Source of the DNA: Stegostoma tigrinum
Lineage: Eukaryota
Assembly: GCF_030684315.1 (NCBI RefSeq)
Contig: NC_081355.1
Span: forward strand, 122,218,674-122,282,673
DNA length: 64,000 nt
Direction: 5' to 3'
Of the stretch, positions 13,590-54,027 are shown in pieces (the first letter of the stretch is position 1; the number at the start of each line of letters is the position of its first letter). A program made the position numbers and the translations under genes. Below the pieces are notes generated by a model, which saw only the letters and a list, made by a program, of their open reading frames with translations, made no database searches and was not told the DNA's origin.

Positions 13590-14330
13590 ACCTATTGTTC
13601 AAGTTTATAGATGCCTTAACTTTCTCAAGTAATGTGAGGTAGATCAGGCATTTTTCATAATTAAAAGTGACTATCTTAGGCCCATGCAAGAGTTTTTGCA
13701 GTAAAATCTGAGAAATGACCTGAAAAGGGTAGCCAATTTCTAAAAGTCTAGCTTTGATACTCCTTATTTCAGCTTCAGGTTTACATGGTGAACAGATGGC
13801 TAGGACGTGCTTGCGGTAAAACCAATCTTGCCGGATATGAAACTGTAGGAGTCCCAGCGTATATACTGACCAGTGAAGGTAAGTTTGCACTGAAGGTAGG
13901 TTTGCATCAGAAATAGTACAGAATCCATTTTTCAACTTGGACATCAAAGAAAGGGAGCAAATTTCACCTATCCATTTCAAGCATGGATTTAATACAGGAT
14001 GAAGCCCATTAAGAAATAAAGGAACATTTTTACACTTAGCTGTAGATTAAAATGTAGCAAAAGAAATATGTATGTATTTGAAATATGCAAAGGGTTGGAG
14101 GGTAAGTGTCATTTAATGGAAGACACATTTCTCATGGAATCCAACAATGGATGCATTCTCCCTGGCAACACCTTTACCAAACAGAGCCTGCATATCAACC
14201 ATGCACTCATGCAATATAAATGGTGTTTTTTCCTTTATATTGGTATTCTTATGAAATGTCCTGATGAGCACAACATAGAAGTTTAGACAAAAATGTGTAT
14301 ATTATCAGCATACTCAACTTCTGTACAACA
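13590..14330 (-). mobile_element. Decayed Penelope-like element: RT fragment plus inverted terminal segment
   Basis: ORF 13588..13980(-) AICSPCKPEAEIRSIKARLLEIGYPFQVISQ resembles the PLE RT thumb (ICS......E...I...L..NGYP). A plus-strand hammerhead-like tgtc-CTGATGA...GAA-gttta-gaca lies at 14257-14289. Confidence 0.65.
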
Positions 14331-15010
14331 CTGCCACTATTTGTATACCTGAGACAAAGGTATATGGAGGTGCAAGGACCAAATTTGAAATGTTAACATC
14401 ATAGTTCATCTTGCTGGTAAGATAAGCTTCATTTTAAACTAAACCTAAGGTTGTGCCAGTTTACATTTCCGAATGTATTCCATATGGTTAGACAAATTGC
14501 AACACGCATTTTTGAGCCAGTTTTCCACTTACACAATGAAGGATTCCTTTATACTTGAGAAGAACATATCAAACTTATATATCAATGTCAAAGCAGTATC
14601 CATGTATTCATTTGACTTTGCTACCCTATTTATAACATATCACTGAAGAAAGCCAGAGACCTCTGCATGGCAACACTGTGTCTTGTTAATCTGGACTCTT
14701 CACCGTGTCATAAATCAGTATTTGTTGAACTTAGAAACTCAGCAACTTTCACAGTTGAGTCCAGTTTCAATGACACCATGCGTATCTAAGTAGGTAGCAT
14801 TGCCACGGGATCTCTACTGGATCCAGTTCTTGAAAATTTCTCTGTTAGATCCCATGGGAAACATATCTTTGGTGGGAAAAATATCCTATATACAACCTTT
14901 GCATATTTCTGGCAGATAAAACAGATATATGCTACATTTGAATATACAACTACTCATAAGAATCTTCTTCTATGTCTTAATGGACTTCAACTTGCACTCC
15001 AACTTATGTG

Positions 15011-15221: not shown

Positions 15222-15653
15222 GTTTGAAAGGGAACAGTTAACTGAGTTAGTTCTAGTTGAGAAATAGCTGGGGAGGTGACATTTCTTTACTACTGTCTAT
15301 TGCAGACCCACATTTACTGGTCAGCTTACTCATAGCTGATTCCCAATAAGGCCAATCCTATTTTGTGTGGAGCTGTAGGAATCTCAAATGCTGAAACAGG
15401 GCACAAAGACATCCCATTGGGGTAATGGTGACCCTGATCAGATCACTTCTCACTGTATATCACAAACTCATGGAGGGCCCCAAGGGAATCATTCTTGGCC
15501 CTGAAACGTGGCCAATTCACCGCAGATTAACTGGGAAGGAAGTCTTTCAAAGAGTATTAAACATAATGTATCTTTGTAACACTATATTGAAAGCCGTCCT
15601 TTACCAAAGCAGGATGTCTCACTAGATTGTTGTATTTTGTTTTATGAATTCAT

Positions 15654-15980
15654 ATTTCAAAACTCCATATTTAGTTGCTTACTAATTGGTAAAGGGCAAT
15701 AATGAAATTTTCTGCAGATTCCCCTAAAAGCTGAACTCTCCCTTTTAAATGGTTGTCCTTCAGGTACATTTTTGTCCTAAAATTGAAGTGATTATCAAAA
15801 CCATTTAGGACATCTACATTAGCATCTGTACTCTCTAATATTCTATTCATTGCTTCAGTTGAATCCATTAAAAATTGGAGTGTATTAACTGCTCAGCTTC
15901 AGGGTTTGGATTTTACTTTCGAGACATTGTTGTATCATAAGAAATATTGCCTCCTTAATCTTGTGTTTTTTATGGTCATT
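15654..15980 (-). mobile_element. Decayed Gypsy gag fragment (template of the inverted copy at 16227-16553)
   Basis: VLNGFDNHFNFR...RVQLLGESAENFIIALYQLVSN resembles Gypsy gag F..R.Q..GES...FI..L..L. Confidence 0.6.
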
Positions 15981-16080
15981 CTCTGAGCTTAAATCTTTGT
16001 GGAAGTGTTACTTTTTTTTCTCAGTACTTCTGACAATTATTATTGTAGAACTGATTTAAATCTGTATCATCTCAGTACTG

Positions 16081-16753
16081 GGAGATAGTAGGACTGCCGA
16101 TGCTAGAAAATCTGAGGTAACAAGGTGTAGAGCTGGGTGAACACAGCAGGCCAAGCAGCATCAGAGAAGCAGGAAAGCTCACATTTTGGGTCTGGACTCT
16201 TCTTCAGAAACTTTCTGAAGACCATAAATGACCATAAAAAACACAAAATTAAGGAGGCAATATTTCTTATGATACAACAATGTCTCGAAAGTAAAATCCA
16301 AACCCTGAAGCTGAGCAGTTAATACACTCCAATTTTTAATGGATTCAACTGAAGCAATGAATAGAATATTAGAGAGTACAGATGCTAATGTAGATGTCCT
16401 AAATGGTTTTGTTAATCACTTCAATTTTAGGACAAAAATATACCTGAAGGACAACCATTTAAAAGGGAGAGTTCAGCTTTTAGGGGAATCTGCAGAAAAT
16501 TTCATTATTGACCTTTACCAATTAGTAAGCAACTAAATATGGAGTTTTGAAATCTGAGATGAGATAACAAGGTGTAGAGCTGGGTGAACACAGCAGACCA
16601 GGCTGCATCAGAGAAGCAGGAAAGCTCACATTTCGGGTCTGGACACTTCTTCAGAAAGTTTCTGAACAAGAGCCCAGACCCAAAATGTCAGCTTTCCTGC
16701 TTCTCTGATGCAGCCTGGTCTGCTGTGTTCACCCAGCTCTACACCTTGTTATC
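16081..16753. mobile_element. Composite Penelope-derived insertion: family-A terminus + inverted copy of flanking DNA + family-A palindrome
   Basis: 14-bp TSD tcatctcagtactg at 16067-16080 and 16754-16767; internal 16227-16553 is the reverse complement of 15654-15980. Confidence 0.85.
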
Positions 16754-16826
16754 TCATCTCAGTACTGCTTGTGATCTAATGTCACCTAGCTTGTATTCTT
16801 GCATTCACCCATGATGTTTAAATTCA

Positions 16827-16913
16827 ATTATGATATAGATTATTCTAAAAGTGTTTCCTCTATTTGTATTGATATTATGATATAGATTATTATGAAAGTG
16901 TTTCCTCTATTTG
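16827..16913. repeat. Tandem duplication of a 40-bp unit with a 7-bp spacer
   Basis: attatgatatagattatt(ctaa/atga)aagtgtttcctctatttg at 16827-16866 and 16874-16913. Confidence 0.9.
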
Positions 16914-27477: not shown

Positions 27478-29520
27478 AAGAACATAGAATATTAACAGTA
27501 GAGCATTGGAATGGGCCCTTCAGCCCACCGTGTCTGTACCAACCATGGTGCAATTCCAAACTAACGCCATTTACCTACATAGGGCCCATATGCCTTTATT
27601 CCCTATCTGTTCATGTATCTGTCTAAATGATTCTTAAATGTTGTTATTGTGTTTGCTTTTACTACCTCCCCAGGACTGTGTTCCACCCTCTGTGATGAAA
27701 ACTTGCCTTCATTTAAAAATATTCCCCCTCTCACCTTCATCCTATGCCCCCAGAATTTAACATTTCCACTCTGGGAAAAATTCTCTGACCAACTACCATG
27801 TCCATGCCTTTCATTGTGCTATATACTTCTATCAGGTTGCCTCTCAGCCTGTGACACACTAACGAAGCTATCGCCAGTTTGTCCAATCTCTCCTCACATC
27901 TAGTACACTCCAATTCAGGAGTAAACTGATCCTGGCAAACTTCATTTGCCCCCCTCTCCAAGGCCTTTACATCTTCCTATAGTGTGGCAAACAGAACTAC
28001 TCCAAATATCGTCCAGCTAAAGTCCTGTACAGCTGAAAAATGAATTTCAACCAATAAAGGCAACCATGCTGTATGCCTCTTTACCACCTTATCTACTTGT
28101 TCTGCCATTTTCAGAGAGCTAGCACCCCAAGATCTCCCTGTATATCAATGCTCCTAAGGGTCCTGCTATTTATTGTTTTGCATTTGACTTCCAAAATGCA
28201 TCATCTCACACTTGGCCAGTGAAAGTTGTCTGTGGGGACTTTACTGAAGCATTTAACAAGATCCCTAACAGTAGGCAGGTCCAGAAGATTAAGTCACATG
28301 GGATCCATAGTGATTTGATAATTTGGATACAAAATCAAATTAGTCATATAAGACAGAGGGTAGTTGTTGAGGGGTGTTTTTTTGACTGGAAGTCTGTGAC
28401 CAGTGGTAAAAACTGTGTTGGTTGTAATATTTATAAGCGACTTGAATGAAAATGCAGGTGGTCTGCCATTTCTCCACCCAACTTTCCAATGATCTATATC
28501 CTGCTTTAATCTTTGATAGCTTTCCTCACTATATATTACTCCACTGATTCTCATGTTGTCTGCAAAATTACTAGTCAGACCACCTGCATTTTCATTCAAG
28601 TCGCTTATAAATATTACAACCAACAGTTTTTACCACTGGTCACAGGCTTCTAGCCAAAAAAGCACCCCTCAACAACTGCCCTCTGTCTTATATGACTAAT
28701 TTGATTTTGTATCCAAATTATCAAATCACTATGGATCCCATGTGACTTAATCTTCTGGACCTGCCTACTGTTAGGGATCTTGTTAAATGCTTCAGTAAAG
28801 TCCCCACAGACAACTTTCACAGCCCTACCCTCATGAAACATCTTCACAATTTCATCAAAAATCTCAAATCAAATTTGTGAGCCTAGACCTCCCCATTCAC
28901 AATGCCTTGCTGACCATCCCTAGTAAGTCCATTCTTTTCCAAATGCGAGTACGTCATGTCCCTAAGAATCTTCTCCACTAATTTCCCTACCACCGATGTA
29001 AAACTCACTGGCCTATAATTTCTTTGATTATCCCTGTTGCCCTGCTTAAAGGTTATTCTCCAGTCTCCTGAGAACTCACCTGTTGCTAATGCGGATACTA
29101 CAGTCTCTATCAAAGTCCCATCAATTTCTTCCCTTGCTTCCTTCAGTATTCTGGGATAGACTTTCTCAGGCTCTACCATAATATTTTAAGACACCTCCTT
29201 ATTATTAATATGCCTTAAAATATCAACATGCCCCTCCCTACCATCATCCATGAACTTCACTTTGGTGCTTATTAATATGTATTAATGTATTTACTAAGTA
29301 ATAAATAAGTATTTATTAATAATTAAAGTACTTATTAGTGAGCACCTCACCCACTTGCTCTGCTCCACACATAAGTTCCCTCTTTGGTCCTTGAGTGAAC
29401 CTATGCATTCCCTAACAACCCTCTTGCTCCTCATATACATATAAATGCCTTGGGATTCACCTCAATTCTATTACCAAGGACATTTCATGGAGCCTTGTGG
29501 CCCTCTTAATTCCTTGTTTT
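27478..29520 (-). mobile_element. CR1/HER1 LINE fragment containing a templated inverted insertion
   Basis: VYPRILKEAREEI...NYRPVSFTSVVGKLVEKILRD; DFTEAFNKIP; LRGNLIEVY. Confidence 0.9.
28219..28820. repeat. Inverted repeat, arms 28219-28465 and 28576-28820
   Basis: The arms are near-identical reverse complements; ORFs 28219(+) and 28650..28847(-) give the same peptide. Confidence 0.95.
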
Positions 29521-51698: not shown

Positions 51699-52019
51699 AG
51701 TAACATTTCGGAAGCAGCTAGAAATCAGGAAATGGAATGGATGGACGATCTTGGGGGGGAATTACAATCAACCAGAAAGGCGTACTGAGCAAATTGTTAG
51801 ATTAAAAGGCTGATAGCTGCCTGGTTCCTGATTGACTTTGGCCTGGGGTCTTAAAGAAGTGGCTAGTGAAATAGTGGATGCATTGTTTTAATTTTCCAAA
51901 ACTCTCTTGATATGGGAAAGAGATAATGGGAACTGCAGATGCTAAGGAATTCCAAGATAATAAAATGAGAGGCTGGATGAGCACAACAGGCCAAGCAGCA
52001 GCTCAGGAGCACAAAAGCT

Positions 52020-52047
52020 GACGTTTCGGGCCTAGACCCTTCATCAG
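52020..52047 (-). ncRNA. Minimal hammerhead ribozyme motif, intact core
   Basis: CUGAUGAAGGGUCUAGGCCCGAAACGUC on the minus strand. Confidence 0.7.
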
Positions 52048-52708
52048 AGAGGGGGATGGGGAGAGGGAACTGGAATAAATAGGGAGAGAGGGGGAGGCGG
52101 ACCGAAGATGGAGAGTAAAGAAGATAGGTGGAGAGAGTGTAACACCTCCGCTCAGTCCGCAACAAACAACTGCACCTCCCAGTCGCAAACCATTTCCACT
52201 ACCCCTCCCATTCTCTAGATGACATGTCCATCATGGGCCTCCTGCACTGCCACAATGATGCCACCCGAAGGTTGCAGGAACAGCAACTCATATTCCGCCT
52301 GGGAACCCTGCAGCCATATGGTATCAATGTGGACTTCACCAGTTTCAAAATCTCCCCTTCCCCTACTGCATCCCTAAACCAGCCCAGTTCGTCCCCTCCC
52401 CCCACTGCACCACACAACCAGCCCAGCTCTTCCCCCCCACCCACTGCATCCCAAAACCAGTCCAACCTGTCTCTGCCTCCCTAACCGGTTCTTCCTCTCA
52501 CCCATCCCTTCCTCCCACCCCAAGCCGCACCCCCAGCTACCTACTAACCTCATCCCACCTCCTTGACCTGTCCGTCTTCCCTGGACTGACCTATCCCCTC
52601 CCTACCTCCCCACCTACACTCTCTCCACCTATCTTCTTTACTCTCCATCTTCGGTCCGCCTCCCCCTCTCTCCCTATTTACTCCAGTTCCCTCTCCCCAT
52701 CCCCCTCT

Positions 52709-52736
52709 CTGATGAAGGGTCTAGGCCCGAAACGTC
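52709..52736 (+). ncRNA. Minimal hammerhead ribozyme motif, intact core
   Basis: ctgatgaagggtctaggcccgaaacgtc; predicted cleavage after GUC at 52736. Confidence 0.7.
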
Positions 52737-54027
52737 AGCTTTTGTGCTCCTGAGATGCTGCTTGGCCTGCTGTGTTCATCCAGCCTCACATTTTATTATC
52801 TTGATATGGGAAAGCCCCATTTGATTGAAAGATAGCGAATATAACTATTTTTTATTCCAAAAAGGAAGAATACAGAAAGCAGGAAAGTACAGGCCATGTA
52901 CTTCTATATCCGTCTTAAGAAAATGTTGGAAACTATTCATAAGAAGTTATAGCAGCGTGTTTAGGTAAATTCAAGGCAATTCATGCAGTGTCAACATGGT
53001 TTTGAGAAGGGGAAGTTATGTTTTAACAATTTTATTGGTGTTTTTTAAAGGAAGCAATATGTGATCAGGATAAAGGGGCACTTGTAGATGTTCTGTTCCT
53101 GGATTTTGTGAAATCATTTGATAAGGTGGCTCATTAGAGGTCTCATGGAAAATAAGAATTCATGGTGAAGGGGCATATTTGCATGAAAAGAAGATTGGTT
53201 GTCTAACAGGAGTCAGTGTATCAGTGTAAATGGGTCTTTTTCAGGTTGGCAAGATATAGTGATTGATGTGCTTCAGGGATTGGTGCTCGGACATTAACTG
53301 TTCGCAATTTGTATGAATGGCTTGTATGAGAGGACGGAAAGTATGTTGCCAAATTTGCTGATGATGCAATGAAAAACATGAAATGTAATTTGTGAAGCAG
53401 ACGTAAGGAGTCTACAAAAAGATATAGATAGGTTAAGCCCTGGCAAATGGAGTAAAAGTGGGAAAATGCGCAATTGTCAATTTTGACAGGTAAAATAAGA
53501 AAGAAATAAACTAACTAGATGGTGAAAAATTGTCAAGTTCTGGGCTGCAAAACAATCTGGTTGCCCTTCTAAATCTCAAAAGGTTATTGTGCAGGTGGAG
53601 CAGGTAATTCGGAAACCTAATTGAATGTTATTATTATTTCAAGAGGAATTGAATCCAAAAGAAAGGAGGTTAGTCTCCATTATACAAGCCACTAGTGAGG
53701 CTATGTCTGGGAGTACTGTACACAATATTGACCACCTAACTTAAGGAAGGAAGCAACTGCATTGGGGCTAGTTCAGAGAGGATTTGTTAGACTAGTAACC
53801 ACTAAATGTGTTGTCTTTTGAGGAAAGATTCAACAGTCTAAGCTTGTATCACCTGGAGTTTAGAAGAGTAATAGGCATCTTGATTAAAAGCTGAAAGAAT
53901 CCTGATGAGTCTTGATACTGTGGATGTGGAGCAGATGTATCTTCTGTTGGGAGAATTGAGAACTGGGGATCACTGTTCAAAAATAACAGTCACCCATTTA
54001 TAAAAGATAAAGGTTTTTTTATTTTTC

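Follow-up and report, generated by a model that had tools for sequence, protein, structure and literature searches.

A Penelope-like insertion whose palindrome probably gained an inverted copy of flanking DNA after integration

At the centre of a Penelope-like insertion in the window (the whole stretch of 64,000 nucleotides of Stegostoma tigrinum DNA that was analyzed), a block of 447 bases appears to postdate integration; it was probably put there by end joining after a break at the centre of the element's palindrome, a reading to which we assign a probability of roughly 0.58. The flank copy carried by this block is younger than the original arms, it shares changes that its lineage acquired after the split from a related organism (organism A), and organism A shows only one copy of that flank; taken together, these observations make the block a likely scar of later repair. 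The TSD would bracket the whole composite because the later block landed in an element that already had one.

Results

Structure of the locus

The insertion is bounded by a 14-bp TSD, TCATCTCAGTACTG, which is identical at 16067-16080 and 16754-16767, and no net deletion is seen at the insertion site. Between the two TSD copies, positions 16227-16553 are a gapless reverse complement of the 327 bp at 15654-15980 (BLAST E 7e-166 within the window), with four mismatches at 15696, 15767, 15795 and 15960. The source stops 86 bp short of the left TSD, and 246 nt separate it from the copy. Beyond the copy, 16554-16762 form a 209-bp palindrome that is 95% complementary around a 1-nt centre and takes in 9 nt of the TSD in inverted orientation, while a short re-copy, gaccataaatgaccataaa, lies at 16220-16238. 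An initial annotation of this DNA had described the TSD, the inverted 327-bp copy with its 4 mismatches, the palindrome and a short re-copy (9 nt), and each was confirmed.

When 16212-16658 are removed, the usual family-A form remains (arm A1, a single centre base and arm A3, with the TSD on either side); the 447 extra bases sit at the centre of the original palindrome. The added block opens with a hairpin stub of 10 nt; next come an aborted 9-nt copy of the flank, the inverted flank of 327 nt, nine nucleotides of inverted TSD and finally the extra arm A2. Its joints carry the microhomologies GA, AA and CTGA, of which the 2-nt matches are weak taken alone. The CTGA match needs the older base at 15653, which is kept in organism A and in four of four paralogs and which also lets organism A's contig align up to 16557. 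The features are as follows.

15650..15980, plus strand: source flank S, a low-copy remnant of an old repeat; 15650-15653 are included if 15653 is taken in its older state
16067..16080, plus strand: left TSD of the original insertion, 14 bp; junction common to organism A
16081..16112, minus strand: Penelope tail, 32 nt, present on this arm only (A1 end)
16113..16211, minus strand: long arm A1 of the original insertion, with the pLTR end and a decayed hammerhead core on the minus strand; 16211 is the 1-nt centre
16212..16221, plus strand: hairpin stub of 10 nt that pairs with the end of A1; the final GA is the microhomology leading into the flank copy; the added block starts here
16220..16228, plus strand: abortive 9-nt copy of 15977-15969, re-primed 11 nt back via AA
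16227..16553, minus strand: inverted copy of 15654-15980, 327 bp, 4 mismatches
16554..16562, minus strand: first 9 nt of the right TSD, inverted; the first 4 (CTGA) also equal the older 15650-15653
16563..16658, minus strand: extra arm A2 plus centre base 16658; the outer 72 nt equal the right arm and the inner part differs at 5 sites; the added block ends here
16659..16753, plus strand: short inverted arm A3 of the original insertion, tail-less; junction common to organism A
16754..16767, plus strand: right TSD, 14 bp

In the 3.2-Gb assembly the source has 16 matches. Only two of these are near-identical, namely the source and the copy, so the composite is not recurrent, and the 327-bp segment was not seen in the same composite at many unrelated loci; the other 14 of the 16 are old repeats, 65-79% alike. 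The sole near-identical partner of the insert thus lies 246 nt off, at the target, which upholds the earlier proposal of a local, DNA-templated inverted copy as opposed to an RNA 3' transduction. Donor-locus sequence recurring with the element, as in such a transduction, was not found. The window also holds a low-copy 602-bp palindrome at 28219-28820 (87% complementary, distant from the family-A arms) and an old 98-bp inverted repeat pair at 14000-14093 and 14896-14989 (73%, ~800 bp apart), perhaps a decayed DNA transposon.

Family A is a Penelope-like element

In agreement with the initial annotation, the element is Penelope-like, and family A represents its terminal repeat. A profile search of a 1.46-Mb genome sample (seven 200-kb blocks plus the window) found 371 arms in 253 clusters, which extrapolates to roughly half a million family-A insertions genome-wide. 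Compound insertions commonly consist of a long arm carrying a 32-nt tail and, after it, an inverted arm that has none; the blocks, together with 49 loci chosen for their likeness to the studied copy, yielded 67 such pairs, and an exact direct repeat of 9-17 nt stands at the ends of 46 of the 67. Penelope insertions have been described as containing a truncated copy in inverted orientation and, at one end, a tail of 30-40 nt (PMC8557442), and the tail has been placed between two reverse-transcription start sites (PMC11167929). An inverted, 5'-truncated copy and a tail at one end (16081-16112) are likewise present at this locus.

Longer family-A copies, whose arms reach 2.4 kb, belong to a sister subfamily that is ~75-85% like the studied arm. 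A 697-aa frame from a long copy (P0001) contains a DKG motif and matched Pfam GIY-YIG weakly at 557-597 (E 0.0013, 19.4 bits, under the 22.6 cut-off), and its Atlas feature scores to RT/HTH_animal/GIY-YIG clusters were 0.97; a Pfam search at E 0.001 and a PDB sequence search with P0001 returned no match. By these features the family is linked to an ORF with a PLE-type RT plus a GIY-YIG endonuclease at the C terminus. The family-A repeat may resemble one from cartilaginous fish.

Minimal PLE hammerheads have been described (PMC4209133), and a minimal hammerhead core was found in the terminal repeat of 100 of 361 arms, using a core-plus-stem pattern with no shuffle control. At the locus, three of three arms fail this pattern and none has the intact core of CUGANGA ... 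GAAA ... cleavage triplet, so the term "ribozyme" in the initial annotation suits the family but not this insertion. Rfam at gathering score gave 0 matches over the whole window, hammerheads included. In E-value mode, four loci returned only below-cut-off matches to hairpin-type miRNAs, which were judged to be palindrome effects and rejected.

Judging by sequence identity, family A has young members, since a longer two-arm Penelope insertion at 51920-52803 of the window has arms 97% alike and a body 99% like another long copy. Elsewhere, a very young 1.5-kb palindrome (L106, G000:C3:70037778-70039298; 99.2%, tandem 440-bp units, 12-bp TSD) looks like tandem or retrozyme-like Penelope RNA copied off both target strands.

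Age of the added block

The arms of young family-A insertions are 98.9-99.7% alike; arms therefore start equal, and their divergence dates the insertion. The original arms, A1 and A3, have diverged at 7 of 99 positions, against 5 of 331 for source and copy (Fisher p=0.008), which makes the flank copy about fourfold younger than the original arms and speaks against the single integration event that had been proposed. For the whole added block against its donors the count is 8/440 (p=0.010). The copy-source divergence of 5/331 does not differ significantly from that between source and organism A (13/331, p=0.09). A local template in a TSD-bounded insertion, as in L1-type templated insertions, is present at the locus; a copied flank as old as the insertion, as expected when such templating occurs at integration, is not.

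Rare letters at 16137 and 16167 are common to all three arms, indicating that the arms come from one source. A2 and A3 also share rare letters that A1 lacks, at 16150 (4/122 other copies) and 16157 (1/122), and their outer 72 nt are identical, which indicates that A2 was copied from A3 after A3 had mutated. The presence in the extra arm of rare right-arm changes that are absent from the left arm likewise speaks against a single integration event. A rare C at 16180/16627 is common to A1 and A2 (2/121 other copies), and near the centre A2 may be a mosaic with A1; its inner 27 nt and centre require at least 3 later changes under every path tried. Gene conversion could also have made A2 and A3 alike, but it is weak in family A: in the 67 canonical palindromes, whose arms lie no more than 30 nt from each other, the arms diverge by a median of 9.9%, and an identical run reaches 72 nt in none and 50 nt in 6.

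The locus in organism A

Organism A is ~5% diverged, with 45 letters differing over 15300-16111. At the left junction, its orthologous contig (X1 record 1) enters the tail 31 nt past the TSD and ends at 16111; at the right junction, X1 record 7 and X4 record 30 start at 16733 and run through the TSD into the flank, with 21 aligned element letters, which is under our 31-letter rule. Because element sequence is found at both TSD junctions, the insertion predates the split. An empty site, which the initial annotation had proposed to look for in related species, was not found; organism A carries the element.

Over S, organism A has one 953-nt contig each in X1 and X3, with flat depths of 10.9 and 13.6, and when aligned to the copy these contigs continue into the source's own upstream flank. 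Organism A therefore shows one flank copy, and a single event finds no support in TSD junctions that are common to both organisms beside one flank copy in organism A. No junction contig was found among the pieces listed for X1 and X3 when aligned to the copy; the absence of the block is read from this and from the single-copy cover of S, as repeat contigs collapse inside the element. Precise loss of the block in organism A would have been possible by way of A1 and A2, which form direct repeats at a spacing of 447 nt. One X3 contig joins 16221 to 16559, possibly from another locus, and was left out of the evidence.

Across the 331 nt of S, 10 substitutions are found only in organism A, 3 only in the source and 2 only in the copy (chi-square p=0.022). 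A 9-nt indel in S is likewise confined to organism A; the sole paralog at the indel, 63% alike, gives it no polarity. Old paralogs, which are just 65-79% alike, agree with organism A at three of the ten A-only sites (15687, 4/5 rows; 15758, 4/6; 15970, 1/1) and with the own species at seven. The changes at these three sites consequently fall on the own lineage, between the split and the making of the copy, which gives 6 own-lineage against 7 organism-A changes and leaves no need for rate asymmetry. From these polarized sites, the flank copy would have been made about midway along the own lineage. A CpG polarity argument at 15698 was dropped, being contradicted by 7/7 paralogs.

Two neighboring differences were also observed. 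At 16827-16913, 60 bp right of the TSD, the window has a 47-bp tandem duplication; organism A contigs skip 16843-16894 and have ~12 letters there. This duplication likely arose in the own lineage too, possibly near the block in time. At 16730-16732, three letters are unaligned in organism A contigs, and a rare letter stands there in all three own-species arms; if organism A has the common letter, some arm-to-arm conversion occurred.

A model of later repair and its alternatives

Under the repair reading, the ~200-bp palindrome would form a hairpin or cruciform and break near its centre. The left 3' end would fold back on its own strand, prime ~240 nt upstream through GA and copy 9 nt, then slip back through AA and copy 331 nt of flank. 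The right 3' end would fold back at its hairpin and copy ~104 bases, made up of the right arm and 9 nt of TSD, after which the two new tails would anneal through CTGA/TCAG and be filled in. These fold-back directions would fit resected 3' ends acting on their own strand. The parts, the microhomologies and the relative ages can be read from the sequence; the break, the succession of steps and the enzyme at work are proposed. In the SD-MMEJ model, snap-back synthesis at inverted repeats is followed by annealing at a new microhomology (PMC5728401), and the locus has an inverted copy of break-flanking DNA with both primer and joining microhomologies (GA, AA, CTGA). Under this model the event would depend on a double-strand break and on polymerase theta, an enzyme for which 331 and 104 nt make long tracts. 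The template jumping proposed in the initial annotation is borne out by the 2-4 nt microhomologies at the joints, but its placement during integration itself is unsupported.

A rather unlikely alternative keeps the same later timing and invokes replication: a fork stalls at the palindrome and the nascent strand switches template 3-4 times (FoSTeS/MMBIR or ODIRA-like), moving from the centre to the flank, slipping, then from the flank to the right TSD and back to the forward template via arm homology. All of the evidence for later timing fits this account too, as does the absence of a net deletion, and microhomologies of 2-4 nt together with tracts running to hundreds of bases are in keeping with MMBIR. 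The rare C shared by A2 and A1 would be expected from a return to the forward template through A1, yet the centre base of the new palindrome is G, against C in A1. Replication also needs a ~650-nt jump from 15650 to the right TSD, whereas the double snap-back needs just the annealing of tails.

It is quite improbable that everything arose in a single twin-primed integration in which both new ends folded back, one onto the neighboring chromosome and one onto its own arm, with later conversion keeping the copy source-like and organism A losing the block by A1/A2 recombination. Two target-primed ends fit the geometry equally well, and precise loss is permitted by the A1/A2 direct repeats. In vitro, a Penelope protein cuts and extends both target strands (PMC11167929), and the L1 templated insertions reported to arise at integration comprise 22 cases, typically shorter than 250 bp and no more than 15 bp from the site (10.1101/2024.08.27.596794). 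Against this, three extra events are required (S conversion, A2/A3 conversion and loss in organism A), conversion is weak in family A by the divergence of its 67 palindromes, and no further flank capture was seen at 300 inner ends or 346 arm ends.

Read support in the own species

A 60-nt contig identical to 16524-16583, with zero differences and 30 letters per side of the joint (one under the 31-letter rule), is present in X11 and X13, two runs of one own-species sample that may itself be the source of the assembly. In X11 the contig over the source is interrupted where the copy ends, and its depth of 18.8 compares with 10.3 and 11.7 in the flanks; in X10 a single contig of depth 12.7 spans the source without a break. 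Neither X11 nor X13 covers the hairpin-to-copy joint at 16222-16227. Reads thus sustain the second joint of the annotated structure but neither the hairpin-to-copy joint nor, in X10, a contig break at S. Six of the 16 runs were compared, leaving out X2, X5-X9, X12 and the bisulfite runs X14-X16 (three runs, other individuals), and uncovered bins in the compared runs were not taken as absence. An assembly artefact, in the form of a long-read fold-back chimera at the hairpin, would agree with the uncovered joint, the X10 contig and the general proneness of palindromes to such chimeras, but it is highly improbable, as copy and source differ at 4-5 sites with the copy keeping the older letter at three, which a chimera cannot explain, and the second joint stands in the contigs of two runs with zero differences.

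Inverted flank copies elsewhere in the genome

The locus had been suggested as an example of a route to inverted duplications, and no regular pattern of this kind emerged in family A when inverted copies were sought by windowed BLAST in the 1.46-Mb sample. Among 346 arm ends there were 23 inverted matches, 22 of which are the two arms of 11 longer elements pairing with each other and 1 of which is this locus. The 300 inner ends gave 3 inverted matches of at least 30 nt, this locus and 2 within one young tandem element, and hence no second inverted flank copy at a family-A inner end in 1.46 Mb. Four were found at 301 outer ends: this locus, the young tandem element twice, and a 26-nt match between two repeat arms. 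As a control, 30 of 4000 random positions had an inverted match, a count that includes other repeats. The rate of flank copies at element ends has a 95% upper bound of ~1%, with no excess over background.

Nine other low-copy local inverted duplications were tested against a three-sequence Penelope library; one touches a Penelope end and eight have no match within 150 nt. Local inverted duplications are a background process in this genome. At L105 (G000:C3:70021630-70021721 and 70025905-70025996), ~80 bp of flank plus 12 nt of family-A tail recur in inverted orientation 4.2 kb away (94.6%), with a younger Penelope copy of 2.4 kb or longer between them; here too an inverted flank copy is associated with a Penelope end, in this case the outer one. 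At L067 (G000:C2:122055432-122055796), a 45-bp exact inverted copy lies beside a 76-bp hairpin with no Penelope match and is a similar fold-back scar without an element. Inverted duplications of at least 2.0 kb (92%, G000:C5:80012001-80017163) and at least 1.1 kb (95%, G000:C20:25127084-25129648) have ends without a Penelope match.

Discussion

The locus serves as a teaching and cautionary case, in that a TSD around a composite is not proof of a single event. Insertion and duplication could be told apart here by three clocks, namely arm divergence, copy divergence and a related genome, and the outcome suggests that Penelope palindromes can be rearranged later and gain flanking DNA. A broader proposal, which we consider doubtful, is that head-to-head Penelope palindromes are delayed fragile sites, some of which would rupture centrally well after integrating and leave inverted flank copies hundreds of bases in length. 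If so, the present locus would be an instance that can be dated, its fold-back tracts at both ends greatly exceeding those usual in end joining, and a genome-wide enrichment of scars at Penelope palindromes, if true, would raise its importance. A rate below ~1% of element ends, with no excess, means that such a process is rare at most. Were everything instead the product of one event, the locus would likewise gain in importance, as the Penelope polymerase would be copying chromosomal DNA during integration. Literature searches aimed at Penelope gave no paper on scar enrichment at palindromes or on chromosomal copying at integration, which is weak evidence of absence.

Comparison with known systems places the locus among several described processes. 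Like described Penelope insertions, it has a tailed long arm, a tail-less inverted arm and a hammerhead-type motif in the terminal repeat, and family A, like described Penelope-like elements, has longer relatives with an RT plus a GIY-YIG domain at the C terminus. It differs from Penelope insertions, as far as their structure is laid out in PMC8557442 and PMC11167929, in its lack of an ORF, its decayed hammerhead cores and its 447-nt central block. With L1 templated insertions, and with twin priming accompanied by switching, it shares local DNA between inverted arms inside a TSD (10.1101/2024.08.27.596794, PMC11702581). Unlike the L1 cases reported there, which form at integration, the template here is 327 bp long and lies 86 bp away, and the copy appears to postdate the insertion. 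As is generally known for FoSTeS/MMBIR and ODIRA, serial microhomology jumps at an inverted repeat would yield an inverted duplication; unlike those duplications this one is sub-kilobase, and from a single locus such a process is indistinguishable from end joining. Snap-back SD-MMEJ shares with the locus inverted copies of the break flanks, priming at inverted repeats, slipping and re-priming, and a newly made joining microhomology (PMC5728401). In contrast to the few-nucleotide products described for that pathway, the tracts here measure 331 and ~104 nt and both ends apparently folded back (PMC5728401). The locus is a clean, datable single case of an already known type of error.
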